Source: an uncultured Spirochaetia bacterium (GTDB taxonomy: Bacteria; Desulfobacterota_D; UBA1144; Nemesobacterales; CSP1-2). Taken from it: a DNA stretch of 51,217 bases. A program made the translations under genes and the position numbers. The stretch lies in the NCBI GenBank assembly GCA_964389705.1, contig CAYMEO010000005.1:1-51217 (forward strand), in the 5' to 3' direction. This document shows positions 9,204-38,033 of this stretch, in pieces. The stretch's first letter is position 1. Each line of letters starts with the position of its first letter. The notes beneath the pieces are model-generated. The model worked only from the letters and a program-made list of their open reading frames with translations. It made no database searches and had not been told where the DNA came from.

Positions 9204-10523
9204 CTATCTTTCAAAATTAAAATTCCCAATCCCCACACCCAGGTATTTAAACCCTATGTCCCTTAATCTCTTTGGATTGTATAGATTTCTTCCGTCAAAT
9301 ATCACAGGGGATTTCATAATCTTCCTCATCCTATCAAAATCAGGTTGCCTATACTCATTCCACTCAGTGTGTATTACTAATGCATCTGCCCCAGAGCATG
9401 CATCATAATTTGACTGTGCATATTCTACCCTATCCCCTAGAATCTTTCTTGCATTCTCCATTGACACTGGATCATGCACACATACGCTGGCTCCATTTGA
9501 TAACAACCTATCTATTACAAACAAAGAAGGTGCTTCTCTGAGATCATCTGTTTTAGCCTTAAACGACAATCCCCATACCCCAAACCTTTTGTCCGTCAGA
9601 TCCCCCCTAAAGTACCCTTTTATCTTTCTCCAGAACACCTCTTTTTGCATCATATTCACTTCATCTGTTGCCTTGCATATTTTAAGCTCGTAATCCAATT
9701 TCTCACCTGTTTTTACAAGCGCCTTTACATCCTTTGGAAAGCATGACCCTCCGTAGCCTATACCTGGAAAAAGAAAAGATCTCCCGATCCTACTGTCTGA
9801 CCCGAGTATCACTCTTATATCTGATACATCTGCTCCTACAATCTCACATAAGTTCGCCATCTCATTCATGAATGATATCCTCGTCGCGAGCATCGCATTT
9901 GCAGCATACTTGGCTAGCTCTGCAGACCTTATCCCCACTACTATTACAGGATTACTCGTCCTTACAAAAGGAGAATACATCTCCTTGAGGATCCCTGCAA
10001 CTGATGCCTTATCTGCTCCAATTACAACCCTATCCGGCTTCATAAAATCCTCTACAGCAGATCCCTCTTTAAGGAACTCCGGGCACGATGCTACATCAAA
10101 CTCCACATCCGTAATCTGCCTTATGACATCTCTTACCATCTCTGTTGTACCCACCGGAACCGTGCTCTTTGTAACTATAATTCTATAGTCCTCAAGACAC
10201 TCTCCTATTTCCCTTGCTACATCGAGCACGGCACTAATATCGGCCGATCCATCTTCGCTCGGCGGAGTAGGTACAGCAATGAATATTATGAATGAGTTCC
10301 TTACCACCTCTGATAGATCAGTCGTAAAATGAAGTCTGCCCTCTTTTATATTTCTCTCAATGAGTTCCTTGAGTCCAGGCTCATAGATCAGAGGCTTTGA
10401 CTGTCTTAGATTCTCAATCTTTACCTCATCAATATCCATACATATCACATTATTTCCTGTCTCCGATAGACACGCCCCTGTAACAAGTCCCACATAACCC
10501 GTCCCAATTATACCTATGTTCAT
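9204..10523 (-). CDS. ugd: UDP-glucose/GDP-mannose dehydrogenase family (UDP-glucose 6-dehydrogenase)
   Basis: IGTGYVGL, KSTVPVGT, PEFLKEG, GYGGSCFPKD (catalytic Cys), FKAKTDDLRE. Confidence 0.95.
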   Translation of the reverse strand: MNIGIIGTGYVGLVTGACLSETGNNVICMDIDEVKIENLRQSKPLIYEPGLKELIERNIKEGRLHFTTDLSEVVRNSFIIFIAVPTPPSEDGSADISAVLDVAREIGECLEDYRIIVTKSTVPVGTTEMVRDVIRQITDVEFDVASCPEFLKEGSAVEDFMKPDRVVIGADKASVAGILKEMYSPFVRTSNPVIVVGIRSAELAKYAANAMLATRISFMNEMANLCEIVGADVSDIRVILGSDSRIGRSFLFPGIGYGGSCFPKDVKALVKTGEKLDYELKICKATDEVNMMQKEVFWRKIKGYFRGDLTDKRFGVWGLSFKAKTDDLREAPSLFVIDRLLSNGASVCVHDPVSMENARKILGDRVEYAQSNYDACSGADALVIHTEWNEYRQPDFDRMRKIMKSPVIFDGRNLYNPKRLRDIGFKYLGVGIGNFNFER

Positions 10524-10542: not shown

Positions 10543-12378
10543 CTACTCAACCGTAACACTTTTTGCCAGATTTCTGGGCTGATCTATATCACAACCTCTC
10601 TTCTTCGCAATGTGATATGCAAGAAGTTGCAGAGGAACTGTAAAGAGAATAGGAGAGAGAAACTCCTCAGTTCTTGGCACATAGAATACATGGTCTGATT
10701 TATCTCTTATCTCTTCATCCCCTTCTGTAGCAATAGATATCACCACCCCATCTCTTGCCCTCACCTCTTCAATATTACCCAGCATTTTCTCCCTTAGGTG
10801 GTTGTCAGGAATAAGACAAACTACCACTATGTCTCTATCTACAAGGGCAATAGGCCCATGCTTCATCTCCCCTGCTGCATAGCCCTGTGCATGAATATAT
10901 GAGATCTCTTTTAGTTTTAGTGCCCCTTCAAGTGCTATTGGATATGTAATACCCCTGCCAAGAAATAGAAAGCCCTTCCTGTCCCAGAATAGATTCGCAA
11001 TACTCTCGACCTCGCCTTCTCTTTTGAGTATATCCTCAACCTTTGTAGGAATAGTGCCTAGCTCAGTCATCATATTATGTACTGCCGTAGGTGAGACTGT
11101 TCCCCTAATCCTTCCCATATATATACCAAGCAAGTAGAGTATGACTAACTGAGACGTAAACGCCTTTGTAGAGGCTACTCCTATCTCTGGTCCAGCATGG
11201 GTGTAGATAACCACATCTGCCTCTCTCGTTGCGCTGCTACCTACGACATTACATACCACAAGAACTGCCGAACCGCACTCTTTAGCCTTCTTTATTGCCC
11301 CAAGTGTATCTGCTGTCTCTCCGGACTGTGTAATGCCTATTGTGAGTGTATTTTTATCTATTATAGTATCTCTGTATCTGAATTCCGATGCTAAATCTAC
11401 CTCCACTGGAATATGTGCCAGAGATTCTATTATATACTTGCCTACCAAAGACGCGTGCCAGGAGGTGCCACATGAGACTATGTATATCCTAGATATGTCC
11501 CTTATACGCTCCTGTGAGAGATTTATCTCCTCCCAATACATTTCGTCTCCATCAAGAGCAGTTCTTCCAGAATAGGTGTTCTTTACAGATTGGGGCTGTT
11601 CATGAATCTCCTTTAGCATAAAATGGGGATAACCGTTTTTCTCTGCCACTTCAGCACTCCACGGTATCTGGTGTACTGTTTTACACCTAGAACATCCGTC
11701 ATCAATACCCATTACCTCTATTCCATTACCATTTAAGACGACCATCTCATTGTCGCTTACATATATAGCGTTCTTCGTGTATCCCAGTATTGCAGGCACA
11801 TCCGAGGCAAGAAAATACTCCCCTTTGCCCCTTCCCACAATCAGTGGACTTCCCCTTCTTGCAGCCACTATCATATTTGGTGAATCAGAGCTTATTACAC
11901 CTATTGCAAATGTCCCCTCTATCTCACAAAGGGCTCTTCTTACTGCCCCCACAAGGTCTCCGTCTGCTGAGTATCTCTCAATTAGATGTGATATGACCTC
12001 AGTGTCTGTCTCCGATTGAAATACGTGGCCTTCAGAGGTAAGCATCCGCTTAAGTGAAAGATAGTTCTCAATAATACCATTATGCACAACCATTACTCTT
12101 CCATGACAGTCTCCATGGGGATGGGCATTTATCTCACATGGTTTTCCATGCGTAGCCCATCTGGTATGACCTATTCCTATGTGGCTTGTATATATCCTAC
12201 CATTTAAGATATTCTCGAGATTCGATAACTTGCCAACGGCCTTCTTCAGTATGATCTGACCATCCTCATAAAACGCTATGCCAGAGGAATCATACCCCCT
12301 ATACTCTAGTCTCCTCAGTCCATCTATTAGTATTGGCACTGCCATACGTTCTCCAATGTATCCTACTATTCCACACAT
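10543..12378 (-). CDS. glmS: Glutamine-fructose-6-phosphate aminotransferase (isomerizing)
   Basis: MCGIVG, LEYRGYDSSG, GHTRWATHG, SQ-like TQSGETAD, ALKLKEISY and C-terminal PRNLAKSVTVE. Confidence 0.97.
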   Translation of the reverse strand: MCGIVGYIGERMAVPILIDGLRRLEYRGYDSSGIAFYEDGQIILKKAVGKLSNLENILNGRIYTSHIGIGHTRWATHGKPCEINAHPHGDCHGRVMVVHNGIIENYLSLKRMLTSEGHVFQSETDTEVISHLIERYSADGDLVGAVRRALCEIEGTFAIGVISSDSPNMIVAARRGSPLIVGRGKGEYFLASDVPAILGYTKNAIYVSDNEMVVLNGNGIEVMGIDDGCSRCKTVHQIPWSAEVAEKNGYPHFMLKEIHEQPQSVKNTYSGRTALDGDEMYWEEINLSQERIRDISRIYIVSCGTSWHASLVGKYIIESLAHIPVEVDLASEFRYRDTIIDKNTLTIGITQSGETADTLGAIKKAKECGSAVLVVCNVVGSSATREADVVIYTHAGPEIGVASTKAFTSQLVILYLLGIYMGRIRGTVSPTAVHNMMTELGTIPTKVEDILKREGEVESIANLFWDRKGFLFLGRGITYPIALEGALKLKEISYIHAQGYAAGEMKHGPIALVDRDIVVVCLIPDNHLREKMLGNIEEVRARDGVVISIATEGDEEIRDKSDHVFYVPRTEEFLSPILFTVPLQLLAYHIAKKRGCDIDQPRNLAKSVTVE

Positions 12379-12499
12379 CTACTTCCTACCTCCAGATTTA
12401 TGTAATCACAATTTAGGTCTGAGGCACTGGTTACCTATCACCTTAGTATCTAAATATAAATAATACAGCCATTATTTGGAATTTTTCTCTCTAAAATCC

Positions 12500-12937
12500 T
12501 CACTGAAAAGAGGAGAAATTCGAGATGACTTTGGCCATCATCTTTCTCGGTATCCATACCTCTCCCTGTACCAATGCCCTTATTGATTTTATTAACTCCC
12601 CAGCGTTTGCGTTCTTTAGAATGTATCCTAGTGCCCCTGCACAGATCGCCCTCTTTATCCTCTCTTCATCATAATCTCTCATTATAAATAAGAGTACCCC
12701 TAAATTGGGATTCTTTTTCCTTACTAGACTCAGAACCTCTAAAGGGTTGAGATTAGCTATATCCATATCAAGCAAAATAAGATCGGCTTTAGTCCTTCTT
12801 ATAACTCTTTTCACCTCCGCTGCCTTAGAAGCCTCAGCTACAATCTCAATATCTCTTTCAGAGGCCAGCACTCTAGATATAGCAGCTATATAGAGAGCAT
12901 ACTCACAGGCTACTATTAATTTTATCTTTTCTGTCAT
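12500..12937 (-). CDS. Stand-alone atypical receiver (REC) domain protein, NarL-type, without HTH
   Basis: REC fold with LLLD-like ILLD and GYILKN. The beta1 acidic pair is replaced (IVACEY). Ends at WIPRKMMAKVISNFSSFQ; clear paralogue of 13406-14092. Confidence 0.8.
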   Translation of the reverse strand: MTEKIKLIVACEYALYIAAISRVLASERDIEIVAEASKAAEVKRVIRRTKADLILLDMDIANLNPLEVLSLVRKKNPNLGVLLFIMRDYDEERIKRAICAGALGYILKNANAGELIKSIRALVQGEVWIPRKMMAKVISNFSSFQ

Positions 12938-13132
12938 TTGTGTACCCCTGACATTGTATTATAAGATGTAAGGGACTAAACTTATTCTTCTTTGGGACCC
13001 ATATAATAATCTGAGTAGAGAACTGAGTTATTTCTCCGTGCTAATTACGTACTCCAATTTATTCATATAGAGCGGAAAACAAGTATTAATCCCTAGCCAA
13101 GACATTTATAAATCCCCATTGGGTATGCTTCC

Positions 13133-13162
13133 GCAACTCACTTACATAAAAAAGTGAGTTGC
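13133..13162. other. Perfect 11-bp inverted repeat (hairpin) in the 468-bp intergenic region
   Basis: GCAACTCACTT-acataaaa-AAGTGAGTTGC; no U-tract on either strand. Confidence 0.7.
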
Positions 13163-13197
13163 ACATTGGTAGTTTAGATGATATTTATATGTGCCCT

Positions 13198-13280
13198 AGA
13201 GACTAAATTCAATAGGACTTTAGAATGATTAATTGAAATAAAAAAGCCCTATTTATTACCTAACGTATAACTTTAGTCCA
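13198..13280. promoter_or_regulatory. Cluster of three degenerate GACT-WW-AGTC boxes
   Basis: GACTAAATTC (13201), GACTTTAGAA (13216) and AACTTTAGTC (13269); a further GGGACTAAAC at 12972. Confidence 0.5.
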
Positions 13281-13405
13281 TATTAGATGAACAATGGTCT
13301 ACTCTAGAAAAAAATCAGAATACAGGCAGGCTCTCTGAATCGGATACAGCCGTTGGCAAAGCTCACCTCATTAGAGTCAATATAACCAAACGACAGCTCA
13401 ATCAC

Positions 13406-14092
13406 CTAGTCTGTAAATCCATTCCGAAAACCGTAGAGTATAAGTTCAGACCTATTTTTCACAGAGAGCTTCTTAAAGATTTTATATAGGTGAAATTTCA
13501 CAGTCTTTTCACTTAAGAAAAGATTTTTTGCTATATCCTTATTGCTACAGCCACTCAAAACCAATTTTACAACCTTCGTCTCAGTTTCAGTGAGATCATA
13601 TATAGACTTACTCCCCTTGGCTCCCCTACGCGGGGATGAAAAGGCTTCTAAAACTTTTATCATCATCTTTCTTTCCACCCATAGCTCCCCGTCGTTTACA
13701 GCCTTAACTGCCTTTATAAGCCGAGAGGAATCCGCGTTTTTCAGCAAATATCCCCTTACACCAGAACGAATGGCATTTATAAGCATATTTTCATTGTAGT
13801 CGCTATTTACAATTAGAATTACCTTAGTAGCCTTATTCTTTCTAAGTATTTGGAGAATCCTTGAGAGATTTAAACCCTGCAGATCAATATCAAGAAGCAA
13901 AATGTCAAAATTGAGTCCTTCACACACTTGAACAAGATCGAGTACATTGGAAACCTTGGACACTACCTGTATGGTTTTATCACTTTCAAGTATCTTACAA
14001 ACTCCTTCTACTAAGAGTGGGTAATAACAAGCTAATACTACACGTAAGGTCCCATCACTTTTCTTCGATTGGCTTCCATTTTGCATGGCCAT
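13406..14092 (-). CDS. NarL/LuxR-family regulator with atypical receiver domain (VpsT/CsgD-like)
   Basis: REC domain (LLLD, GYLLKN; acidic pair replaced by ACYY) plus a C-terminal LuxR HTH (LTETETKVVKLVLSGCSNKDIAKNLFLSEKTVKFHLYKIFKKL). Strong RBS GGAGG. Confidence 0.9.
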   Translation of the reverse strand: MAMQNGSQSKKSDGTLRVVLACYYPLLVEGVCKILESDKTIQVVSKVSNVLDLVQVCEGLNFDILLLDIDLQGLNLSRILQILRKNKATKVILIVNSDYNENMLINAIRSGVRGYLLKNADSSRLIKAVKAVNDGELWVERKMMIKVLEAFSSPRRGAKGSKSIYDLTETETKVVKLVLSGCSNKDIAKNLFLSEKTVKFHLYKIFKKLSVKNRSELILYGFRNGFTD

Positions 14093-14114
14093 ATCACCCT
14101 CCTTCCCCTTTTTA

Positions 14115-14123
14115 CAACCGCCT
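14115..14123 (-). promoter_or_regulatory. ops-like element (AGGCGGTTG) in the leader of the LuxR-type gene
   Basis: GGCGGTTG versus the RfaH ops core GGCGGTAG; lies just downstream of the NusG paralogue and upstream of the RBS. Short, so it may be chance. Confidence 0.3.
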
Positions 14124-14212
14124 GTCGCAATTCATACTACAGATGAGACAGAGCAGCTTGAGATAAGTATTTACTGCTGTTGATCATCGCTGTTTTTCAA
14201 CCCCATCCAGCC

Positions 14213-14743
14213 CTACAGCGGCTCCATATCAAGAACATTAACCTCTACAGAAACAGACTTTTTTATAAGGTCTATAGACAATACAAACCTGTGTTTTGAG
14301 CGTTTCTCCATAATCCTACCGATTACCCCCTGTAGAGGACCACTTTTTATCAAGACTTCCCTTCCTCTGTCGAGGTAAGGATATGGATCATACTTTAGCT
14401 TGCTTTGAACAAGCGTCCTTATGGCCTCCACTTGCTCAGCGGGCACAGGCACAGGGGTACCATTACACCCCACTACTTTCAAGACCCCCTTTGTATACAT
14501 AACCCTATGTATATCTCCAAGGCCTACATTTACAAAAACATAAGAGGGAAAAAGGGGAACGTTTATAGTTTTATTACGGTCCTTCCATCTAGATACAATC
14601 TCCCTTAGAGGAAGAAAGGTTGTAACGCCTCGATTCTTCAAGTTTATTTCTGCTACCTTCTCATGTCGGCTCTTAGTATAAACAGCATACCACTCTTTTC
14701 CATTGGATAAGTCATCAACAACCGCTGATATGTCAAACGACAT
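14213..14743 (-). CDS. UpxY/RfaH-type NusG paralogue (transcription antiterminator)
   Basis: WYAVYTKSRHEK...FLPL...PLFPSYVFV NGN domain and KOW motif GREVLIKSGPLQGVIG; heads a polysaccharide operon. Confidence 0.9.
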   Translation of the reverse strand: MSFDISAVVDDLSNGKEWYAVYTKSRHEKVAEINLKNRGVTTFLPLREIVSRWKDRNKTINVPLFPSYVFVNVGLGDIHRVMYTKGVLKVVGCNGTPVPVPAEQVEAIRTLVQSKLKYDPYPYLDRGREVLIKSGPLQGVIGRIMEKRSKHRFVLSIDLIKKSVSVEVNVLDMEPL

Positions 14744-14793
14744 ATAACTAATTCTCCCCGAGTTAAGAATTTATTCCTTAATACTAATGCCTA

Positions 14794-14860
14794 ATTAAAA
14801 TGCAAATGGCGCCAAAAGTCAATAAGACTTTAGTTATACCCCGCTACTAGGCTAAAGTTA
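14794..14860 (-). promoter_or_regulatory. sigma70-type promoter of the NusG paralogue with two upstream boxes
   Basis: Minus strand TTGACT (14822-14817)-N17-TTTAAT (14799-14794). Boxes AACTAAAGTC (14835-14826) and AACTTTAGCC (14859-14850) are spaced 24 bp apart. Confidence 0.6.
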
Positions 14861-14873
14861 TAAGAAATCCGAC

Positions 14874-15980
14874 TCATTTATAGCTTTTTAGTCGAAACAT
14901 CTTTCCCGGAAACTGAGTAATCAAACCGCTGAGTTCCAGGGATAGAAGAACCGAGAGCACATTTGCCGGACTCATTCCGGTCAGCTTGGTGATTTCATCA
15001 ATGTGAAGGGGCTCATCTCTGAGCACAGAATAAATTGTCTTCTCATCTTGAGAAATACCGCAGAGTGAAACAGTACTAGCAGACACGGATTTATCTTCCT
15101 TAAACCTTCTAAGCAATTCTATCTCGGTTAATATATCCTCTACCGACTCGACTAGCTTTGCTCCTTCTTTTATTAATTTGTTTGTTCCCCGACTGAGTTT
15201 GGTCTCTATGTTTCCCGGTACAGCAAACACCTCTCTATTCTGCTCGAGTGCAAAAGAGGCTGTAATAAGGGAACCACTCTTATCAGAGGCCTGAACCACA
15301 ACAACTCCGAGAGAAAGACCACTTATGATTCGGTTTCTTTTTGGAAAGTTTATAGAATCTGGAGAGGTCCCAAGAGAGAATTCCGAGACAACCGCCCCTC
15401 TGTTAGAAATCTCCTCATAGAGTTTTTTATTCTCGATTGGATAAATAACATCCAAACCCGATCCCAGAACGGCAATGGTTCTTCCCCCGGTTCTTAATGC
15501 CCCCGCATGAGCAATAGAATCAATCCCACGCGCCATTCCGCTTACGATGGTAATGCCTCTTTGAGAGAGTTCCTCTGCAAGCCTCTGCGTAACGGATCTC
15601 CCATATCTGTCGGGAACCCTTGTTCCGACTATCGCAATCGCATTGTTATCTTCAGAGACAATCTCCCCCTTCACATAGAGAAAAGGCGGGGGGTTATATA
15701 TATTAAAGAGATTCCTTGGATAGTTTGGATCTGTAAGGAGTAGTAATTTAAAACCCGACCTTTTAATCTTCTCGATCTCTTCTTCAACCCTATCCCAGTC
15801 AGAAAAGCCCTTTATTGCCTGAGCCGTCTTCTCGCCGATTCCATCTACTCTCTCAATTTCATTTATCTGCGCCCTAAAGACATTTTGAGGACTATGGAAT
15901 TCAGAAATGAGGTTTCTGAATAAAACCTCCCCTACACCCTGAACCATCTTTAGCGCAATCCAGTATCTCCATTCTTCCAT
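14874..15980 (-). CDS. dprA: DNA-processing protein DprA/Smf
   Basis: IAIVGTR, IVSGMARGIDSIAH, FPKRNRIISGLS, SGSLITA, VFAVPG and a C-terminal winged helix. Confidence 0.95.
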   Translation of the reverse strand: MEEWRYWIALKMVQGVGEVLFRNLISEFHSPQNVFRAQINEIERVDGIGEKTAQAIKGFSDWDRVEEEIEKIKRSGFKLLLLTDPNYPRNLFNIYNPPPFLYVKGEIVSEDNNAIAIVGTRVPDRYGRSVTQRLAEELSQRGITIVSGMARGIDSIAHAGALRTGGRTIAVLGSGLDVIYPIENKKLYEEISNRGAVVSEFSLGTSPDSINFPKRNRIISGLSLGVVVVQASDKSGSLITASFALEQNREVFAVPGNIETKLSRGTNKLIKEGAKLVESVEDILTEIELLRRFKEDKSVSASTVSLCGISQDEKTIYSVLRDEPLHIDEITKLTGMSPANVLSVLLSLELSGLITQFPGKMFRLKSYK

Positions 15981-20307: not shown

Positions 20308-21510
20308 TCATCCTTCGATCCCGTGACGACCCTTAACGAAAAGGTAGGCTTCTAGCAATTTATCAATAGAATTTTTCCAAGAGTACTTCTCAATACCGAT
20401 TGCTTTTAGTTTCATAGCCAGGTCATGTCTTAATTTATCATCATCGAGCAACTTAATAATACAATCCCTTAGCGAGACAGGATCATTTGGTCGAGCATAG
20501 ATTCCCAAATTACCGAGGATCTCCCGATTTACTGGATAGTCAAAAACAACACTGGGAAGACCACTAGCAATATAATTATAAAGTTTGATATTGGCTTCAC
20601 CACTCAAATCTAAGAGTTTTGGAGACACCGCAATTATTCCAAGGGCCAGGTAATTATATATCTCCCAATAGGAAACCCTTCCCGTAAAAGTTATATACTG
20701 GGAAATATTTAAATCCTCTGAAATTTTTTTATAGTATTCTACATCAGGATATCCCATAATGAGAAAATGCACATCGTCTCTTTTCTCCACTATATATTTA
20801 ATGGCCTTTAACAAAAGATTCATACCCTGATACTCAGTAAGTAGACCCAGGTAGAGGATTATTTTTTTACTGTCCGGTATATTTAATCTCCTCCTTAATG
20901 ACTCGGTTTCATCTGATATATTTGGATGCGGTAAATCAGCAGCATCAGGAACGACGAAAATCGATTCCTTTTTTATTCCAGAGTTCTTATGAAGGCGATT
21001 GGACATAAAATTAGAATTTACTACAAATGCATCAGCGGCTTTATAAGATAGTCTCTCCAAAGTCAATGCCACTTTATTTATCACTTTATGAAGGAATGGA
21101 TATTCCTTCATAAATTTATGAGCCCTTACTTCACCCGTAAATTCACCTTGGACGTCAAAAACCATAGGAATTCTAAACAGCAAGCTACAGATTTTTCCGA
21201 TCAAAGCACCCTCATTTAGATGTGCATGAATGACATCCGGCTTAGTCTGATAAGTTACAAATATGGATTTTAGTAAGAGTAGAAAGTCCAGATATATCTT
21301 GTGAATTGAGGGTCCGGCTGAGGTCTTTTTATACCAAGGAATATTAATAATGCGTCTAATATCAATTCCGGGGATATCCTTGTCCAGATGATACGTACAA
21401 ATAGTAACACTATTCCCTAAGGATATTAAATTTTTTGCCTCTTCGTATATTCTCACATGGCAACCCCTATCTGAGAAAAATGGAGTCGGGGCTATCATCA
21501 AGATCTTCAC
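20308..21510 (-). CDS. Glycosyltransferase family 4
   Basis: MKILMIAPTPF, LYLGLLTEYQG, EANIKLYNYIASGLPSVVFD; GTG start. Confidence 0.9.
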   Translation of the reverse strand: MKILMIAPTPFFSDRGCHVRIYEEAKNLISLGNSVTICTYHLDKDIPGIDIRRIINIPWYKKTSAGPSIHKIYLDFLLLLKSIFVTYQTKPDVIHAHLNEGALIGKICSLLFRIPMVFDVQGEFTGEVRAHKFMKEYPFLHKVINKVALTLERLSYKAADAFVVNSNFMSNRLHKNSGIKKESIFVVPDAADLPHPNISDETESLRRRLNIPDSKKIILYLGLLTEYQGMNLLLKAIKYIVEKRDDVHFLIMGYPDVEYYKKISEDLNISQYITFTGRVSYWEIYNYLALGIIAVSPKLLDLSGEANIKLYNYIASGLPSVVFDYPVNREILGNLGIYARPNDPVSLRDCIIKLLDDDKLRHDLAMKLKAIGIEKYSWKNSIDKLLEAYLFVKGRHGIEG

Positions 21511-21665
21511 GGAAATTATCCCTATTTAACAATTTAAATTTAGAATTATAATCCCCTTATCAAAGAGTCTCTATTTGGTTTTGAATTTTGCTTTGTTTTA
21601 ATATTAACTGTCACCGATATTTTTCTTTCTATAGAGAAAACTCAGCGAATCTTAACACCCCTAAA

Positions 21666-22679
21666 TTATACGGCTAGATTCATAGATATAATTTTCTGAT
21701 ATACCGACTCTATTGATTCTACCATTATTTCGGGACTAAACATCTCTACCCAAATTGGATGATCCCTTAAATCAATTTTTCTTTCTACCTTACCGCTTCT
21801 TAAAGAGGCAACTATACTGGCTGCCAATTGTTTACTGTCTCCTCTTTCAACCAGGAGCCCATTGATACCATGGCTAATAATCTCGGGAATACCACCTACA
21901 TTAGTAGCTACTATTGGCAATCCAGCGGCCATAGCCTCCAGCAACACTATGCCGCTAGCCTCTATCTCCGAAGGAAGAACAAATACATTAGCTCGATAAA
22001 AGTACTCTCTTACATCATTTGGGGATAGTCCATTTATAAATTCTATAGGTAGATTTCTACTCAAGAATCTGGCTACAAGTCTGGAATGTAGGTACTCCGG
22101 TCCAATAACTAATACCCTAGCACTAGGAATCTCTTCTAATACGAGTGGCAGGGCTTTTATTAATGTAAAAAGACCCTTTCTAAAATAGTCCCGACCAACA
22201 AATAATATGAGGTTCTCGTCTCTCTGATCAGAAGTGTAATTATAACCATCTGTATCTATAGCCAATCTAATAACAAATGTGTTGGGGTGACTAATTTTTT
22301 TTCTCATATATTCCGAGTGGATTATAATTGCCTGAGCCTTCTTTAGGATTTTTGAGTATTTCCACTTACGCACCTTCTGAAGGATATATCTCAACGGCAG
22401 GTCCGGGCACGGAAATGGATAAAATTGAGTCCAGTAATAATCGTGGATGTCAACTATCACCGGGCATCTCAGTTTTTGCAAATACTTTAAATTTGCATGC
22501 TTGAGATCGAGTACGTGGGCAATATCCCAATCTCCCTCGTAATCTTCCGGCAACGAGAAGATTTTAACAGTATGCCGCTTATTCATTTCATTCAGCACTA
22601 TATCACGGTATGTACCTGAGCCAGTCAATAATCGACCCATTTGGGTAAAATAGAGGATCCTCATGTCGTTTTCCAACAT
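21666..22679 (-). CDS. Glycosyltransferase family 4
   Basis: LFVGRDYFRKG and FVLPSEIEASGIVLLEAMAAGLPIVATNVGG (EX7E). The true start may be 22664. Confidence 0.9.
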   Translation of the reverse strand: MLENDMRILYFTQMGRLLTGSGTYRDIVLNEMNKRHTVKIFSLPEDYEGDWDIAHVLDLKHANLKYLQKLRCPVIVDIHDYYWTQFYPFPCPDLPLRYILQKVRKWKYSKILKKAQAIIIHSEYMRKKISHPNTFVIRLAIDTDGYNYTSDQRDENLILFVGRDYFRKGLFTLIKALPLVLEEIPSARVLVIGPEYLHSRLVARFLSRNLPIEFINGLSPNDVREYFYRANVFVLPSEIEASGIVLLEAMAAGLPIVATNVGGIPEIISHGINGLLVERGDSKQLAASIVASLRSGKVERKIDLRDHPIWVEMFSPEIMVESIESVYQKIISMNLAV

Positions 22680-22696
22680 TGGTAGTTATATAGCAG

Positions 22697-23719
22697 TCAG
22701 CTACTTTTCTCTTGCAAAATGCGGTCCAATCGGCAGCGGCGCTTATAAATAAACCAAGGAGAATAGTAGGGTCCCCAAAATCTATCCATCTCTGCATAAG
22801 TGATTCTCCGATTGCTCTGGATTCTACTTCGCTCTCTTAGGACCCGCGGTAGCTGTTTTAAGGCACTGATCTTGGCTTTAAACCTTGAAATGTCCTTCTT
22901 TTTTAATAGATAGTATCCATCTGCAAGTATATCATAAGCAACAATAAGAGGAGCATAATAGAGTATGTACCTAATAGGCCAGTCTTTCAGAATGGTCAAA
23001 ATTTTATTCCTCTCAAGCAGAAAGATCTTTCTACTCGATTCATGGCCCAGCGACCATGCATGGTGATGAAATACAACAGCCCTAGGAACGTATAAACACC
23101 GCCAACCGGCCAGTCTCGCCCGGAATGCTAAATCAACCTCTTCGTAATAGATGAAATAATCCTCATCAAATAGCCCTACGTCCTCAAAGACCTCCCTTTT
23201 ATAAAATGCTGCGCCGCCAGAAGGGCAGAACACCTCTTCAATCTGCTCGGAACCCCCTTCATCTATGGTAAGCCCCATCCTACCATATACATTGCCATCT
23301 TTACTAATCTCCACACCCGCACAATCTATGATGTCTCGACTAGAACTAAATAATACCTTGGAAGCCAGCATCCCTATTCCTTCATCCCTCGATTTAAACC
23401 TCATAAGCTCTTCCAACCATTTACTATCGGGAACCATATCATCGTCAAGCGTAACGATGTATCTTCCTCTGGCCTCTTTAATCCCCTGATTTCTCCCGCC
23501 AGCGCAACCCTTGTTTTCTTCGTTTTCTATGATCCTAACAGTGGGGTGTCTATTTTTAATCTCGTTTACATGGCTTTGATCCAATCCATTGGTGACCAGA
23601 ATAATCTCGAATTCCCTAAAGCTCTGCCGATATATGCCCTGTAAGCATCTGTCCAAGATTTTTCCTTGATCTCCCCATCTCGATGTCAGGATAATTATAG
23701 AAACTAGGTTTTGAGTCAT
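22697..23719 (-). CDS. Glycosyltransferase family 2 (rhamnosyltransferase-like subfamily)
   Basis: VSIII, LDDD (DxD), YYEEVDLAFRARLAGW. Start uncertain: 23719 matches the domain start; in-frame ATGs at 23845 and 23890 overlap the upstream gene. Confidence 0.85.
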   Translation of the reverse strand: MTQNLVSIIILTSRWGDQGKILDRCLQGIYRQSFREFEIILVTNGLDQSHVNEIKNRHPTVRIIENEENKGCAGGRNQGIKEARGRYIVTLDDDMVPDSKWLEELMRFKSRDEGIGMLASKVLFSSSRDIIDCAGVEISKDGNVYGRMGLTIDEGGSEQIEEVFCPSGGAAFYKREVFEDVGLFDEDYFIYYEEVDLAFRARLAGWRCLYVPRAVVFHHHAWSLGHESSRKIFLLERNKILTILKDWPIRYILYYAPLIVAYDILADGYYLLKKKDISRFKAKISALKQLPRVLRERSRIQSNRRITYAEMDRFWGPYYSPWFIYKRRCRLDRILQEKSS

Positions 23720-23831
23720 TGACTTAATAAAAGGAACGTAGTAGAAATCTGCTCTCGAAGTCGGATACCGCTCAGTAAATGTACCTACGAGTTGACTCTT
23801 GCCGTTGACAATGCGAAAATGGGAACTAATT

Positions 23832-25457
23832 TCATTTTGTGTCATAGGCCCCCACATCATACGCCGACCCTTGGGGTATAGTATCACCATAGAAGTCTGT
23901 CTGGCCCGGGTTTATACCAAATTGCGTTAAATTCAAGCCCGCATCAATGAGCGGAGATGTACTCCGCAATTGATAGGCAGTAAGTGTAGGAAGAAGGGTA
24001 GCATCACCAAAGGTCCCTCCTCCGCCTAGACTTACAAGCTCAGGGTCTACGTTAAATCCGGTAATTACATTTCCTATTTTCTCCTGGCCGGTAGCATTGC
24101 GCCAAGAACCTAAGTCGGTGTAAGTAGTAGAGCCCCATTTAATGGCAAAGCTATCGTCACTTGACCAGTAATCATTACCCTGAAACAAAATGCCGCTTTG
24201 TCCAGAAGGAACGTTTACCAATTGTAGGCCCCCTGTGGTTATAAAAATATTGTTGCGCACATGGACATTCACGGTAGGACCAGAGATGGATATTGCTTTG
24301 GGGCTGCCGCTAGGCGCCGGGCTTATATAGACTGTATTGTTATAAATCTCACTATTCTTAATTCCGCTTCCGTCATTCCACAACTGGATTCCTCCAAAGC
24401 CGTTCTTGCGTCCGTCGTCCTGACTAATGTTGTAACGGATGGTATTCCCATAAAAGGGCCGAGCACCGCTGAACTGTGCCAGTAAAAAACCAGCCCCGTC
24501 GTTGTCATGTGAATAATTATACTGCATGATTGAATTGGTCACCCCCCCGTCAAGGTCAAAACCCCCTCCATCGGCACTAGAGTCAGTAGCGTTGTTGTAA
24601 GACTCATTGTGCTGAATGATAATACTGTTTGAGTTCCAGGCCCAAATACCTATAGGGCCACCCACCGCTGTATTAAGCCATCCATTGTTATAGGCCACAG
24701 ACCATTCAATAATTCCCCCATTAACGTCTGAGATCACAATGCCATTCCCCGAATTATATGGTAATCCCGGTATTCCAGGATTATTATAGGCCTCGACGTA
24801 GCCTATATAGACGTCTTCATGAGCATAATCGGTTGCGGTTGAACTTAGAGAAGAATCGCCCCAAATCGAGATACCGGCATCTGCGTTATCATGAGCCGAT
24901 GTATTAGTAATACTAACGTCTCGAAAACCACTTTTACCATTATCCCCTACAATAGAAATACCAACCCCTCCAAATTCGCTGACCTCAACGCTGTCTATAT
25001 GTACATAATCCAATTTTATATCTCCCGGAAGATCATTGTAAAAAATTATTCCGTCGTCTGTATTGACCTCCCGACCAGCCCCAACGAAATTTATATTCTT
25101 TAGCATGTATCCAGCAGTATTGTAGGCGAAGAACCCGCTACCAGTACCTGCCTGAATGGTTGCACGACCCCGGCCATAAGAAGAGATAGTAATAGGAAGG
25201 GCACTTGTCCCCATTGAAGCAGAATCAAAGTAAAGATTACCGGTAAATGTGTTTCCGCCTTTAAATAAGATATTATCCCCCGCGGCAAATTTGGCCCTGT
25301 TTACTCGATTTATGGTTCTCCAGGCTTGCCTTCGCGAGGTTCCAGAATTACTGTCATCCCCCGAAGGACTGACATAGTAGGTAGTAGCATAAGCGTATGT
25401 GATTTCCCCCAAAAATATCGCTAAGGAAATTATAATCCCCCCTATCTTAAACCTCAT
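23832..25457 (-). CDS. Secreted right-handed parallel beta-helix protein, probable polysaccharide lyase/hydrolase
   Basis: Signal peptide (..ITYAYA/TTYYVSPSGDDSNSG), Asn/Gly-rich PbH1-like repeats (DGGGFDLDGG), C-terminal IDAG...D..G..IPQGSAYDVGAYD tail; SD AGGAGGTG at 25472-25465. Confidence 0.8.
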   Translation of the reverse strand: MRFKIGGIIISLAIFLGEITYAYATTYYVSPSGDDSNSGTSRRQAWRTINRVNRAKFAAGDNILFKGGNTFTGNLYFDSASMGTSALPITISSYGRGRATIQAGTGSGFFAYNTAGYMLKNINFVGAGREVNTDDGIIFYNDLPGDIKLDYVHIDSVEVSEFGGVGISIVGDNGKSGFRDVSITNTSAHDNADAGISIWGDSSLSSTATDYAHEDVYIGYVEAYNNPGIPGLPYNSGNGIVISDVNGGIIEWSVAYNNGWLNTAVGGPIGIWAWNSNSIIIQHNESYNNATDSSADGGGFDLDGGVTNSIMQYNYSHDNDGAGFLLAQFSGARPFYGNTIRYNISQDDGRKNGFGGIQLWNDGSGIKNSEIYNNTVYISPAPSGSPKAISISGPTVNVHVRNNIFITTGGLQLVNVPSGQSGILFQGNDYWSSDDSFAIKWGSTTYTDLGSWRNATGQEKIGNVITGFNVDPELVSLGGGGTFGDATLLPTLTAYQLRSTSPLIDAGLNLTQFGINPGQTDFYGDTIPQGSAYDVGAYDTK

Positions 25458-25561
25458 AATGGGTCACCTCCTACTAGTTTTTGTTACTTCCAGATGGAGG
25501 CAAACCATTAGCTGAGATGATTAGAAGCTAAGGGGATAAGATGAGAAAGCTCCTTGCTCTA

Positions 25562-25653
25562 CTTCGGTAACCCAGCCGCCATAGATTGCCCGCGCAATCT
25601 TTAGGCCGAAGGTTTTGCGCCCCATCCTTTTGGATGGTTTGCCTTTGTCGGTT
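25562..25653 (-). ncRNA. c-di-GMP-I (GEMM-I) riboswitch aptamer
   Basis: Minus strand reads ACCGACAAAGGCAAACCAUCC-AAAA-GGAUGGGGCGCAAAACCUUCGGCCUAAAGAUUGC-GCGG-GCAAUCUAUGGCGGCUGGGUUACCGAAG. It aligns position by position to the GEMM-I consensus (GGCAAACC, CGCAAA, CCUAA/UAUGG receptor, GGGUUACCGA). Confidence 0.9.
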
Positions 25654-25812
25654 AGAGACAACCATCTTGTAATTGTGTAATTCAGATACCTTTATGCACA
25701 AGGCTTTTCTATTTATTACACAAGAATAATCTATTGTCAAATAAGCTTTCTAAATTTTGGATATATTCTGAATCATTGCCATTCTCTTAGTGTAATGCAC
25801 TATTGGATTAAT

Positions 25813-26739
25813 CTATTTTTGACTAATCCGGGGTTCGAATACCCTATATTTGAAAGACAGCGGCTTCATTAACCCCTTCCATATCCCGTGGATAACAAAA
25901 AGATAGCAATAGCCCTTGAGTAATCTATGCTTATTTCTGGTCAGGGCTGCCAACACGATATTTCCTATCCCTCGAATGAGGAGCCTCTCAATAATCAGTC
26001 CGAGTACATACACATCTCCATAACGCAGGTGTTTAATCAATAACGCACCCGCACCGATATTGTAATCCTTCTCTACACGCAAGGCTTCCACATCTCCTCT
26101 CCACAGTCTGTGGTATATAATAGCCTCAGGTGTATAGACGACTTTCAGTCCACAACGAAGCAGTCTATAGGCCATGTCAGCATCATCACAATTCCTCAAT
26201 TCGGCCCCCGGTCCCAGCAATTCATCAAAATATCCTATCTCTTTAAAAACCCCTCTTCTGAGAGCCATATTATTGCCAGACTGAAACTCCCAGGGATTGA
26301 CTAATCTTTTGTATTCCTGACGATTGTCTTTCAAGCGAATAGCCAGCATCTTTCTGGTTCGGGCTCCATCAAAAACAGGGGGCACCTTCCCATAAACAGC
26401 CATAGTATCTCTATCCCTTTTGAACTCCCGAATAATGGCTTCAGCCCAATCACCGGTTACAATACAGTCATCATCGGTAAAGGCTATTATATCACCAGTA
26501 GCGGTCTTAATACCCACATTTCTTGCCTTAGATAGACCCCTGGTTTCTGTGGGTATGTGCTTGAGGTTCCTTATAACAGGTAATAACTCCTCTATAACAG
26601 ATATGGTAGCGGCAATATTGGAGCTCTGATCTACAACTATGACCTCATGGAATTCGAGTCTGCTTTTAGAGAGGGACTGAAGACAGGTCCTTAAGAGATC
26701 CGCTCTATCTCTGGTGCAGATTATTAAAGAAATTCTCAT
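25813..26739 (-). CDS. Glycosyltransferase family 2
   Basis: ISLIICTRDR, VVDQS, AFTDDDC, DDADMAYRL. Confidence 0.9.
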   Translation of the reverse strand: MRISLIICTRDRADLLRTCLQSLSKSRLEFHEVIVVDQSSNIAATISVIEELLPVIRNLKHIPTETRGLSKARNVGIKTATGDIIAFTDDDCIVTGDWAEAIIREFKRDRDTMAVYGKVPPVFDGARTRKMLAIRLKDNRQEYKRLVNPWEFQSGNNMALRRGVFKEIGYFDELLGPGAELRNCDDADMAYRLLRCGLKVVYTPEAIIYHRLWRGDVEALRVEKDYNIGAGALLIKHLRYGDVYVLGLIIERLLIRGIGNIVLAALTRNKHRLLKGYCYLFVIHGIWKGLMKPLSFKYRVFEPRISQK

Positions 26740-26803
26740 AGCTAATCACCTAAATACAAAAATATATCGTTGCCATATCATCCAGTCTCGACATCTCCAC
26801 ACC

Positions 26804-28117
26804 TTACGAGCCGATACCCATAATGTCCCTTACTTTAGACCCATCCGTGTAAGACCTATTTTTTAAGTAAAACTTAATTCCCGACACATAGCCCGAAATT
26901 TCTACCAGTAGCGTACTTCGCCTTTGCCCAAAGCCTTTTAATGTCCCAGTTAAAAAGGATTTAACATAGAAGGCGGGTAAAGCAATGAACAGACGTAGCA
27001 GATTACCAAAGTGTCTGTACTTTTCAAACTGAATTAAAAGTGCGGCTACATGCCCCCGCATATAATAGTACACCTGCCGCTCTAAGCTATCTGTGTCTCG
27101 ACGATGGTTGTGATAAACTACAGCAGCCGGTTCATAGACACAAGTCCAGCCCCCGGCAATCATCCGATACCATAATTCAGAATCTCCACTACATCCGGCG
27201 GCTCCTACATCCAACCGCTCGTCAAACCCCCCCACCAGCTCAAAAACCGTGCGCCGAAATGCCATATTGGCTCCGGCACCAATGCGCCAAACGGGCACAC
27301 CCCAAGTCCTGTGATCCTCAAAGAAACGACTGTCGAAGGTCAAAGCTCTATATCCTCGATTAAAGCCCCAGTATTTTTCAAAAATAAACTGGGCTTCCGT
27401 TTCCAATTCCATTGGCAGAACGAGCCCGGTAACAGCCATCACCTTCGGATCATTAAAGCCTTGTAATAATCGGGTGATCCAATTGGGATGAACCATTACA
27501 TCATCATCTATAAAGGCGACGATGTCACCTGTGCTCTTGCGAATACCTGTATTTCTGGCTACATCCAAACCGGGGCGCGGTTCCAATATATATCTGATTC
27601 TCGGCATCTTCGCGACTAATTGGCGTGTGGAGTCTGATCTCGGGGCGTTATCAACAACCAATATCTCTTCGGGATATTGAGATAGATCTTGAAGCGATCT
27701 TAGGCACTTTGCCAGTTGTTCTGATCTATCCCGTGTGCATATAATAACCGAAACAGATTCATCCACAGGTCTTGACAAATACTCATGCACTTGGGAGAGA
27801 GATTGGTCTAACATCATCAGACCTCGTTGGCCCGAGTTCATAATTCTTGAATTTTGATATAATTCGGCTGAATGGCCCTTCAAGCCTTGCTTCAATAGAC
27901 GATCGCAGACTACCGGTGTAATGGTCCGAAGTGCTAGATTTGCAAGCTGCTCAGAAGTTATAGGCAATTGAGCAGATGGGATTTCCCGATGGCCAAGCGG
28001 AATGCTATACCACCAAAAGACAATATATAGCCCCTGATAGCCCTCGTCAATTTGCAGCGAAGGCAAGCCCTTACCTAAATCGATATTCAGAATTTTCCAA
28101 GGCTTAAAGGCATTCAT
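26804..28117 (-). CDS. Glycosyltransferase family 2 with N-terminal accessory module
   Basis: VSVIICTRDR, VVDNAP, AFIDDDV, GDSELWYR, preceded by a ~115-aa non-GT N-terminus. Confidence 0.9.
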   Translation of the reverse strand: MNAFKPWKILNIDLGKGLPSLQIDEGYQGLYIVFWWYSIPLGHREIPSAQLPITSEQLANLALRTITPVVCDRLLKQGLKGHSAELYQNSRIMNSGQRGLMMLDQSLSQVHEYLSRPVDESVSVIICTRDRSEQLAKCLRSLQDLSQYPEEILVVDNAPRSDSTRQLVAKMPRIRYILEPRPGLDVARNTGIRKSTGDIVAFIDDDVMVHPNWITRLLQGFNDPKVMAVTGLVLPMELETEAQFIFEKYWGFNRGYRALTFDSRFFEDHRTWGVPVWRIGAGANMAFRRTVFELVGGFDERLDVGAAGCSGDSELWYRMIAGGWTCVYEPAAVVYHNHRRDTDSLERQVYYYMRGHVAALLIQFEKYRHFGNLLRLFIALPAFYVKSFLTGTLKGFGQRRSTLLVEISGYVSGIKFYLKNRSYTDGSKVRDIMGIGS

Positions 28118-28127
28118 AGAGATTGAC

Positions 28128-29045
28128 TTATCTCCAAATATATTCCAGTCGCTTCTTGATTCGGCTAAGTCGGTATAAAATGGGGTGGTTATATGGCCAA
28201 AATCCTTTTTGAAGAGCCTGCCAGACCTCCTCGTCCCGAATTCCCTGTTTGGATAAATACTCCGTCATCCAGTTTAAAAAATTCAAGTGCTCCGGGTTTG
28301 GCCGTGAGAGTTGGAGTTGCCCTGTTCTCTCAGCAACAGAGCAGCATGAATCCGGGTGCTGACGATACCTATCCCAACATTCACTGGATACATACACCGG
28401 CACCCTGAGATACACCTTAGCAAAAAATGCCCTGTCCTCAAACAACCCCCTAAAGATATCTTCAAATCCACCCACCTCATCAAACACCCTGCGCCTTATT
28501 AGGACACTACAAGTGGCAGGCGCATTCGCTCTGTTTTGCAATAAAAGCGTGAGCAATTGGGGCGGTTGGTAAAGCGTATTGGGCAGAACCCCGATTTCCC
28601 GCACCGAGTCACTTTGGCTATCTTCCGAATTACCTGTCCAGCTGTACCAATATTGAGTAGATCCAAAAACCATGCCGGCCACAGGATAAGAATCTAGAAT
28701 CACTGCCTGCTGCTCCAGTTTGTGTGGCAGCCAAACGTCATCGGCATCTAAGAAGGCGATGTATTCCCCCCTGGCATTACTGATGCCCAAATTACGCGAA
28801 GCGCTCATGCCCTGATTTTGATGACCATCATGTTTAAGATAACGAACCTTCTTGGGATATTGCCTAGCATACCCTAGCGCAATTTCAGTGCTACCGTCGG
28901 TTGAACCATCATCTACAAGCAAAAGTTCCCACTCGTCATAGGTCTGGGCAAAGACGCTCTCGATAGCCTCCTGTATAAACTTCCCGGCGTTTAAAAATAT
29001 AGTGATGACTGAGACCAGCGGCTGTCTAATAATCGTATCAACCAT
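28128..29045 (-). CDS. Glycosyltransferase family 2 (paralogue 3 of 3)
   Basis: PLVSVITIFLN...VDDGSTD...FLDADDVW. Start set at 29045 (SD AGGTGG; ATGGTTGA overlap with the deacetylase stop) rather than the track's 29231. Confidence 0.88.
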   Translation of the reverse strand: MVDTIIRQPLVSVITIFLNAGKFIQEAIESVFAQTYDEWELLLVDDGSTDGSTEIALGYARQYPKKVRYLKHDGHQNQGMSASRNLGISNARGEYIAFLDADDVWLPHKLEQQAVILDSYPVAGMVFGSTQYWYSWTGNSEDSQSDSVREIGVLPNTLYQPPQLLTLLLQNRANAPATCSVLIRRRVFDEVGGFEDIFRGLFEDRAFFAKVYLRVPVYVSSECWDRYRQHPDSCCSVAERTGQLQLSRPNPEHLNFLNWMTEYLSKQGIRDEEVWQALQKGFWPYNHPILYRLSRIKKRLEYIWR

Positions 29046-30072: not shown

Positions 30073-30096
30073 ATTATCTCCACAGTTGTAATGTTG

Positions 30097-30136
30097 ATTA
30101 TAAATTGGCAGTTTGACACTCTCCTGACTAAAGTCA
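30097..30136 (-). promoter_or_regulatory. Putative activator-dependent promoter: perfect -10 plus a palindromic box abutting -35
   Basis: TATAAT at 30102-30097; no -35 consensus at N17 (AGGAGA); TGACT-TT-AGTCA palindrome at 30136-30125, centred near -40.5. Confidence 0.55.
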
Positions 30137-30314
30137 AGGAGATTCCCAGGCAACCTCAAAATAGTTTGAGGTTAGCGCCTGACGGTTGTGCCCCAACCGA
30201 TTGTTTCATATTCTATTAAGTTTAGCTTTCTGTATCTCCGAGTTAAAACTCTGGAGTTTTAGAAAACAGGATTCTGATAAGATGGTGTTTGGGTACCTTT
30301 CATAAAAGGGAACC

Positions 30315-33792: not shown

Positions 33793-33811
33793 AACCCTGG
33801 AATTTCATTAG

Positions 33812-34576: not shown

Positions 34577-34623
34577 CAGTCAAGATAGTCTTTATACACA
34601 GAATAATTTCGCGATACCAACAT

Positions 34624-35562: not shown

Positions 35563-35674
35563 ATCTATAAGAAGAGAATTAAATTGAAAAGCCCATTAAA
35601 GCTACCGGATTATAGAACAATTATATTCCGGAGCCATCTAGCAAACATACACAATCTTTAGATCTTAAGTACCC

Positions 35675-36661: not shown

Positions 36662-36708
36662 CTCGTCTCACTAGAACTAAAATGCCACTTGGGACTCGGC
36701 CTCTATAG

Positions 36709-38028: not shown

Positions 38029-38033
38029 CGCCC

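Follow-up and report, generated by a model that had tools for sequence, protein, structure and literature searches.

Two neighbouring open reading frames (ORFs) in a 51,217-nt stretch of contig CAYMEO010000005.1, from an uncultured bacterium of Dadabacteria type, encode atypical receiver proteins that share a W-x-x-R (WxxR) motif at the start of helix alpha6. In this stretch, hereafter the window, the two are designated ORF A and ORF B. The original prediction, made from the sequence alone, described them as tandem receivers with a helix like that of VpsT, the Vibrio cholerae biofilm regulator that senses cyclic di-GMP (c-di-GMP), and as candidate glycan regulators. The analysis reported here points, tentatively and just short of even confidence, to an autoregulated, phosphorylation-independent regulator of glycan genes (ORF A) that dimerises through alpha6 and is accompanied by a decoy (ORF B) lacking a helix-turn-helix (HTH) domain. 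ORF A would be an orphan transcription factor of the NarL/LuxR family, encoded beside ugd in Dadabacteria and related Thermodesulfobacteriota, and is best read as of the VpsT/QstR type by mechanism and as outside the VpsT family by motif and homology. Coordinates of all features are collected in Table 1.

Pfam assigned Response_reg (residues 25-130) and GerE (167-219) to ORF A, which divides into an atypical receiver (16-133), helix alpha6 (141-152) and a LuxR/GerE HTH (163-223). Response_reg alone was assigned to ORF B, with no HTH. Thus, of two proteins both predicted to be regulators, ORF A has the domains of one, and ORF B has no DNA-binding domain. Both ORFs were present as described; the label of tandem receivers is weakened by the 468-nt spacer that separates them and by a conserved promoter belonging to ORF B. 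The two proteins are 37% identical across 139 aa, their families are 35-37% identical overall, and hhalign of the two family alignments returned a probability of 99.95. The possibility that ORF B is a truncated pseudogene was considered and rejected. Homologues of ORF B form approximately 27 clusters, all receiver-only and of 145-167 aa, and ORF B is therefore a conserved stand-alone protein and not a truncation; since only 121 nt lie between its stop codon and glmS, there is no space for a lost HTH. The listed homologues of ORF A (n = 120, 58-100% identity) come, where the source is named, from metagenome-assembled genomes of Candidatus Dadabacteria or Thermodesulfobacteriota. Residue counts given below refer to 118 full-length clusters for the A family and 27 clusters for the B family. 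ORF A scored under every NCBIfam equivalog cut-off (NarL, CsgD, UvrY, EvgA and others), with a best score of 121 bits for NarL against a cut-off of 250 and 82 bits for CsgD, also against 250. A contig labelled Ignavibacteriales (L004/P0134) carries an 88% identical ORF A in the same gene order, probably because a contig of Dadabacteria type was misbinned or mislabelled. In another locus (L038, 5187-9451) a canonical NarL-type regulator, a nusG paralogue, two tandem ORF A paralogues and ORF B stand in series, a gene row that shows local duplication of the ORF A regulator; both tandem paralogues read GQLW[IV]ERK.

The pocket of ORF A is made up of the strings VVLAC22Y23YP, LLLD68ID, ILIVN96S and GYLLK118N, which the HMMER alignment places in register with NarL as C22/Y23 = D13/D14, D68 = D59, N96 = S87 and K118 = K109. 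The canonical NarL/FixJ pocket of acidic pair, phospho-Asp, Thr/Ser and Lys was not found in ORF A: the Mg2+-binding acidic pair and the Thr/Ser are gone, and the Asp and Lys are retained. The Ser97 adjoining the Thr/Ser position varies within the A family. The corresponding strings of ORF B (LIVAC11E12YA, ILLD57MD, LLFIM86R, GYILK108N) give a pocket of C11/E12, D57, M86 and K108, in which a single acidic residue, E12, is retained at the second position of the pair. The predicted pocket residues were accurate for the Asp and Lys that are kept and for the missing Thr/Ser, and went too far in taking the whole acidic pair from ORF B. Across the A family, A21 is present in 116 clusters and C22 in 117; position 23 is R, Y, H or N and never acidic; position 68 is D in 97, G in 20 and E in 1; position 96 is D in 88, N in 20 and S in 4; and K118 is kept in 113. 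The replacement of the phospho-acceptor by Gly in 20 of the 118 clusters (17%) is the strongest argument for an A family that functions without phosphorylation. No HisKA/HATPase_c, GGDEF, EAL or PilZ domain was found by the Pfam scan of every ORF of at least 200 aa across the 51-kb window, in accord with the predicted absence of a histidine kinase, and no kinase was found within 10 kb of the genes in related loci. Judged from these residues, both receivers are almost certainly phosphorylation-independent, as had been proposed, with the lost pocket, the Gly at the phospho-Asp and the lack of a nearby kinase in agreement.

Ordinary response regulators, phosphorylated at D68 and D57 by a distant kinase or by acetyl phosphate, would account for the retention of D68 and K118 in ORF A and of D57, K108 and E12 in ORF B, and also for the best sequence and fold matches being NarL, VraR and LiaR. 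That explanation is extremely improbable given an acidic pair missing from all 118 A clusters together with the Thr/Ser, the Gly substitution, the absence of kinases from the window and from the 10 kb around the genes in relatives, and scores far below the equivalog cut-offs. The pocket also bears on another alternative, in which the pocket or alpha6 senses another nucleotide, or a redox or thiol signal is sensed through Cys22 beside D68 and K118. A near-invariant Cys replaces the first Mg-binding Asp in both families (C22 in 117 of 118 A clusters, C11 in 24 of 27 B clusters) despite approximately 36% identity, D68 and K118 are mostly retained though phosphotransfer chemistry is lost, and the conserved acidic third residue of the motif described below is unlike every characterised VpsT-type site. 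However, D68 is lost in 20 of 118 clusters, so that the whole pocket is not strictly needed; the synteny of the locus reveals no conserved ligand-related or redox genes nearby; and the literature searched holds no precedent. A signal of this kind is accordingly regarded as decidedly improbable.

The alpha6 motif, predicted as GE(L/V)W(V/I)(E/P)RKMM just after the receiver, was read in both ORFs. Among homologues of ORF A, 119 of 120 carry ELW[VA]ERK[LM]M; E136, R141 and K142 are present in all 118 clusters, W138 and K127 in 117 each, and position 140 is Glu in 116 and Asp in 2. In the B family the W, R and K are invariant, and the third motif position is E in 10 clusters, Q in 9 and P in 8. 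The block 134-143 is the most conserved block common to the two families. Since 119 of 120 homologues have the motif and neither family varies at its W, R and K, it is not a chance occurrence. When the C-terminal half of ORF A was searched against PDB sequences, VpsT was the best match (E 1.5e-16), with ELWVERKMM of ORF A aligned residue for residue with EMWLTRKLA of VpsT, exactly where the VpsT-like WxxR had been predicted. The equivalences are K120 = K127, W131 = W138, T133 = E140, R134 = R141 and I141 = L148 (VpsT first). The equivalent of I141 is hydrophobic in both proteins (L148 in ORF A, I138 in ORF B), and that of K120 is K127 on alpha5 in the A family and K or R in the B family; these further residues of the VpsT type are therefore present.

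The distribution of the motif was surveyed with a HMMER search of 1.84 billion cluster representatives, of which the 150 best were returned and the 122 of single-regulator size aligned to ORF A. WxxR stands at the ORF A position in 60 of these 122 NarL-family representatives. The pocket is incomplete, in one or more of its four features, in 50 of the 60 with WxxR and in 16 of the 62 without it (Fisher p = 9e-11, kinship ignored), and a Lys at the VpsT-K120 position accompanies 45 of the 60 as against 18 of the 62 (p = 4e-7, likewise ignoring kinship). Had WxxR been equally common in ordinary NarL proteins the original prediction would have been refuted; this was not the case, as it was found in 10 of 56 representatives with a canonical pocket and in 50 of 66 with a degenerate one, again ignoring kinship. 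Canonical NarL proteins instead read G-x-x-Y-[IL]-x-P at the place of G-E-x-W-x-E-R-K. WxxR was found in none of the 25 canonical NarL-type matches from the ORF B search, and the canonical NarL protein beside the ORF A paralogues in L038 reads GGKYVSS and has no WxxR. Ten proteins with a complete pocket carry WxxR, and WxER occurs in seven with a complete phospho-acceptor pocket; for two canonical-pocket WxER proteins (P0202 and P0204) the small receivers encoded nearby are of the ordinary CheY-like kind, on contigs too short to show kinases. The third residue among the 60 was E in 32, D in 8, G in 9, S in 3 and T in none. By these alignments WxxR marks a subfamily of mostly degenerate receivers, the natural motif of which is W-x-[E/D]-R-[K/R] and not that of VpsT.

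The fold was less informative. The AlphaFold2 (AF2) model of ORF A (predicted local distance difference test, pLDDT, 83) comprises the receiver, helix 141-152 and the HTH, and that of ORF B (pLDDT 92) the receiver and helix 131-142. Foldseek searches of the PDB with both models placed LiaR, VraR, DesR, NarL and RcsB first; VpsT came 26th with the ORF A model and fell outside the top 50 with that of ORF B. The seemingly extra helix is therefore the ordinary linker helix of the NarL family, and structure does not discriminate; kinship with VpsT by fold was not singled out, and the structural comparison proposed earlier did not favour VpsT. The full-length sequence of ORF A is nearer to NarL and VraR than to VpsT, and the N-terminal part of its receiver is not detectably nearer to VpsT than to NarL. 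The likeness to VpsT is confined to the sequence of the one helix.

Whether that helix binds c-di-GMP turns on the third motif residue. VpsT contacts the ligand through K120, W131, L132, T133 and R134 (PMC7288161); its binding is lost with R134A, and its c-di-GMP-dependent dimerisation with I141E (PMC3359988). QstR of V. cholerae, which reads WLPR, works at low c-di-GMP, is affected only tenfold by R130A, becomes strictly c-di-GMP dependent with P129T and requires L137, the counterpart of VpsT I141, for dimerisation (PMC6237807, citing Chodur et al. 2017). BrpT of V. vulnificus, also WLPR, functions independently of c-di-GMP (PMC6237807), and its tabulated dissociation constant (Kd) is 135 uM, compared with 3.2 uM for VpsT (PMC10519070). 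The third position therefore decides ligand dependence, and the helix stays a dimer interface. The VpsT motif W[F/L/M][T/S]R is matched by neither WVER of ORF A nor WIPR of ORF B, both of which fall outside it at positions 2 and 3. WIPR approaches the W-L-P-R of QstR and BrpT in a protein without an HTH and in a family with Pro in 8 of 27 clusters, and ORF A has Glu. With a carboxylate where VpsT has T133, binding in the VpsT manner should be less favourable. The suggestion that the proteins are possibly c-di-GMP-dependent was thus left unsupported, with the VpsT motif absent, Glu in 116 of 118 clusters and Pro variants c-di-GMP-independent; the accompanying statement that the third position is non-canonical was correct, the residue being Glu in the A family and E, Q or P in the B family. 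Dependence of ORF A on c-di-GMP is doubtful.

A full-length c-di-GMP-I riboswitch lies inside an 18.5-kb glycan island in the window and shows that c-di-GMP signalling exists in the organism and acts on glycan genes, here through RNA. If ORF A, and perhaps ORF B, also bound an intercalated c-di-GMP dimer through W138, R141 and K127, with the ligand driving dimerisation and DNA binding, the glycan genes would respond to c-di-GMP by two routes, protein and riboswitch. Consistent with this are the residue-for-residue VpsT alignment, which includes K127, W138, R141 and L148 (contact list from PMC7288161), the invariance or near-invariance of the contact residues in both families, the co-variation of Lys127 with WxxR in the subfamily, the VpsT match of the C-terminal half of ORF A, and the riboswitch itself, which at 71 bits shows signalling acting on glycan genes. 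A REC-HD_5/HD (HD-GYP-like) gene near the ORF B-glmS-ugd unit of one locus (L084, 10033-10460) is a further hint, here that the lineage has genes for c-di-GMP turnover. The explanation is nevertheless unlikely. At position 3 the A family has Glu and the B family P, Q or E; among the 60 WxxR representatives E or D accounts for 40, S for 3 and T for none; the Pro variant is c-di-GMP-independent and changing Pro to Thr restores dependence (PMC6237807); BrpT binds with a Kd of approximately 135 uM (PMC10519070); Glu at the place of T133 may disfavour an anionic ligand; WxER also occurs in the seven complete-pocket proteins; and the whole of ORF A is nearer to NarL and VraR, with the low Foldseek ranks of VpsT given above. 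A tblastn search with GGDEF and EAL consensus sequences found no match in the window and 43 related loci (628 kb, all of the same neighbourhood), a result confined to that neighbourhood and not bearing on the genomes as wholes. The Dadabacteria genome paper (PMC8115339) does not mention c-di-GMP, and the VpsT-like regulators in the literature searched come from Vibrio work only.

The DNA upstream of the genes provides a candidate binding site. The operator and promoter element ahead of the nusG paralogue, directly after dprA, matched once in the window against 0.02 expected and occurs once per locus, in the same relative place, in 27 related loci (L001-L035); it is conserved across a deep lineage. 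The family-wide form is an inverted repeat, ACTTTAG-N16-18-CYAAAGT, abutting the -35 hexamer, with the arm consensus yTACTTTrGTyyTA and, in many species, a third copy between -35 and -10. Since the element precedes the nusG paralogue and not ORF A directly, the two genes probably share a promoter and are co-transcribed. The window holds the arrangement CYAAAGT-N3-4-TTGA[CA] in just two places, the ORF B promoter and the promoter at 14833 (0.05 expected), and the ORF B promoter is kept in four related loci (L002, L003, L005, L008) and, with TTGATT, in two more (L006, L007). A position weight matrix (PWM) trained on arms from other species only had its best match in the whole window at the site within the putative island promoter, 39072-39086 (18.1 bits, a score reached anywhere in 3.4% of shuffles), in the spacer that precedes the first gene of the island and adjoining TTGACA; the top match and its position alone are informative. 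An operator is probably present at the island promoter too. The core ACTWWAGT is the centre of the DosR box TTSGGGACTWWAGTCCCSAA, the site of a NarL-family HTH dimer (PMC2275270), and by this analogy it fits a dimer of that kind. The simplest reading, given that no other regulator is conserved at the locus, is that ORF A would regulate itself and also control ORF B-glmS-ugd and the island.

In the mechanism proposed, the ORF A receiver would bind neither Mg2+ nor phosphate and would serve instead as an oligomerisation module, with alpha6 (G-E-L-W-x-E-R-K, together with K127 of alpha5) forming the dimer contact as in VpsT, QstR and BrpT. The dimer or oligomer would occupy short palindromes of the ACTWWAGT type at its own promoter, common with the UpxY antiterminator encoded by the nusG paralogue, at the ORF B-glmS-ugd promoter and probably at the promoter of the 18.5-kb island. 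ORF B, with the same alpha6 surface, would be a decoy or modulator whose heterodimers with ORF A miss one DNA-reading head, and because ORF B would be expressed from an operator-bearing promoter a feedback loop would result. With Glu (ORF A) or Pro (ORF B) in place of Thr/Ser, c-di-GMP would be unneeded for dimerisation, and the c-di-GMP input to the glycan genes in the window would be delivered by the riboswitch.

Several observations weigh against this mechanism. The acidic side chain of Glu could read the N1/N2 edge of guanine, as in other c-di-GMP sites, in a mode different from that of VpsT. The residues equivalent to VpsT contacts (K127, W138, R141) are invariant or almost so, and a pure protein-protein helix need not keep them. 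The associations of WxxR with the pocket and with the Lys take no account of phylogeny. Matches to the PWM of at least 10 bits number 5 against 6 in shuffles, which is no enrichment, with scores of only 3-6 bits for the sites in the ORF B promoter and for the distal site of the island. Another factor could bind the operator, for example the convergent degenerate LuxR-type protein encoded after ugd in related loci. Finally, in L084 the ORF B-glmS-ugd unit stands without an adjacent ORF A. A broader proposal, quite unlikely on present evidence, is that G-E-x-W-x-[E/D]-R-[K/R] with the alpha5 Lys defines a large NarL-type subfamily in which the alpha6 site has replaced phosphorylation and binds a nucleotide second messenger, either c-di-GMP through the Glu or another dinucleotide. 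If so, Dadabacteria would wire that sensor, an HTH-less decoy, an UpxY antiterminator and a c-di-GMP riboswitch into one surface-glycan circuit.

Known regulators resemble the pair in part. VpsT (PDB 3KLN/3KLO), a LuxR/CsgD-type protein, has like ORF A a non-canonical receiver joined to a GerE HTH, is tied to exopolysaccharide genes and carries E-x-W-x-x-R-K where alpha6 begins, along with the K120 and I141 positions (PMC7288161, PMC3359988). It differs in having W[F/L/M][T/S]R where ORF A has W-V-E-R, in belonging to a different phylum and in that ORF A has a receiver-only paralogue as partner. QstR and BrpT, described in PMC6237807 as c-di-GMP-independent dimers with an alpha6 interface, supplied the functional model adopted for ORF A, and share with the W-I-P-R of ORF B a variant at the third motif position. 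They are related to ORF A and ORF B by motif and not by close homology, and have an HTH and bind DNA, unlike ORF B, and Pro where ORF A has Glu. NarL (1A04), VraR/LiaR (5HEV) and DosR are the best sequence and fold matches to ORF A and have the same HTH type, and the operator core resembles the centre of the DosR box (PMC2275270); canonical NarL/FixJ proteins nonetheless have the acidic pair, the Thr/Ser and the nearby kinase that ORF A lacks, and the G-x-x-Y-[IL]-x-P that is replaced in it.

Atypical NarL-family heterodimers, such as BldM-WhiI of Streptomyces and RcsB-RcsA, are phosphorylation-independent, and their output is set by the partner. They offer a precedent for an A-B heterodimer, with the difference that both partners have an HTH there and one lacks it here; by analogy the HTH-less ORF B points to a dominant-negative or decoy role. 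In the literature searched, c-di-GMP sensing by VpsT-type receivers has been studied in Vibrio only. The present locus has the same helix with a different, strongly conserved third residue, the hallmark of a broad phosphorylation-blind NarL-type set in uncultured lineages, and the annotation of many 'orphan response regulators' would follow from an answer on the ligand of the Glu variant. The locus also offers a compact conserved circuit for surface-glycan control in an uncultured phylum, comprising a regulator, its receiver-only paralogue, a shared operator, an UpxY-type antiterminator and a c-di-GMP riboswitch.

Table 1. Positions of the genes, motifs and regulatory elements in the window.
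Feature	Position	Strand	Description
ugd	9204-10523	-	Pfam; conserved neighbour of ORF A
glmS	10543-12378	-	Pfam; downstream of ORF B
ORF B	12500-12937	-	145 aa; stand-alone receiver plus alpha6, paralogue of ORF A
ORF B motif	12536-12565	-	G125-E-V-W128-I-P130-R131-K132-M-M134; WxPR 'proline variant'
Hairpin in ORF B 5' leader	13133-13162	-	perfect 11 bp, then GCGGAAGCA (to 13126)
ORF B promoter	13184-13277	-	two direct ACTAAAGT sites (13266-13277, 13217-13223), TTGAAT-N17-TATAAA
ORF A	13406-14092	-	228 aa; receiver plus LuxR/GerE HTH; candidate orphan regulator
ORF A motif	13661-13690	-	G135-E-L-W138-V-E140-R141-K142-M-M144; start of alpha6
UpxY-family NusG paralogue	14213-14743	-	Pfam NusG; NCBIfam antiterm_UpxY NF033644, 124.7 bits (cut-off 100)
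Operator and promoter of nusG paralogue/ORF A	14794-14858	-	ACTTTAG-N18-CTAAAGT, 4 nt, TTGACT-N17-TTTAAT; directly after dprA
Glycan island	20308-38864		18.5 kb; GT2/GT4 genes (~10 glycosyltransferases), 2 deacetylases, ABC-2 exporter
c-di-GMP-I riboswitch	25563-25653	-	Rfam RF01051, 71.1 bits (gathering 35), E 4.7e-12, model 1-87 of 87
Glycan-island promoter, putative	39028-39136	-	CTAAAGT (39130-39136), ACCAAAGTCTG (39072-39086), TTGACA, ACTTTG, TGTAAGT

Downstream of ORF B lie glmS, ugd and genes for a PMT_2-family glycosyltransferase, methyltransferases, a GT4 glycosyltransferase and an epimerase. The gene for ugd directly follows ORF A in 27 loci across species genomes, with dprA upstream in most, and ORF A is followed by ORF B-glmS-ugd in 5 loci. 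The synteny dprA-ORF A-ugd is kept in approximately 30 species. The order in the nearest subclade is dprA, the UpxY-like nusG paralogue, ORF A, ORF B, glmS and ugd. Of the predicted role as glycan regulators, the placement of the genes in glycan loci (glmS, ugd, the island) was borne out, and the control itself is only probable; glmS and ugd are likely targets of the ORF A circuit. In many relatives (L009-L031) a convergent 200-aa LuxR-type gene, absent from the window, follows ugd (e.g. L028 10152-10745, minus strand); its product has a fully degenerate receiver with no Lys and no WxxR, and would be another candidate for regulating the locus.

Presence of the nusG paralogue is restricted to the subclade in which ORF B and glmS also stand at the locus. 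The UpxY family is best known from Bacteroides capsule loci, and its member here belongs to a genome of Dadabacteria type. Like NusG paralogues of the UpxY/RfaH type, the gene in the window, which passes the UpxY cut-off, heads glycan genes; it differs from UpxY loci in being coupled to a LuxR-type regulator through a shared operator, and no UpxZ-like partner was identified here. The hairpin in the ORF B leader is conserved in L005-L008, followed by a T-run in L006 and L008, and may work as a terminator in the leader on which the UpxY-like protein acts. The GCGGAAGCA that follows it presumably resembles the core of the RfaH ops element, and a similar GGCGGAGC lies in the island leader at 39015-39022. 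The ops-like form GCGG[AT]AGC in the two leaders was discarded as a candidate element, with approximately 7 matches in the window against approximately 9 expected, which is not significant.

The glycan island has a G+C content of 0.45-0.49, higher than the approximately 0.40 it is compared with, and is missing from the closest relative (L002/L005), in which the HhH-GPD gene directly adjoins ABC transporter genes; the island resembles an insertion that varies among strains. The riboswitch is located 106 nt upstream of the gene for a 541-aa beta-helix-like protein (23832-25457), which had no Pfam match above threshold and a partial match of the lacto-N-biosidase-like/choice-of-anchor Q kind; GT2 and GT4 genes come after it. 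An Rfam search at relaxed threshold of positions 12300-14950 revealed no RNA family, and no riboswitch in the 468-nt spacer between ORF A and ORF B. Two pairs of same-strand ORFs within the island (28128-29231/29038-30159 and 36709-38220/38034-38864) overlap by approximately 190 nt, and their mechanically assigned TTG or GTG starts are probably set too far upstream.

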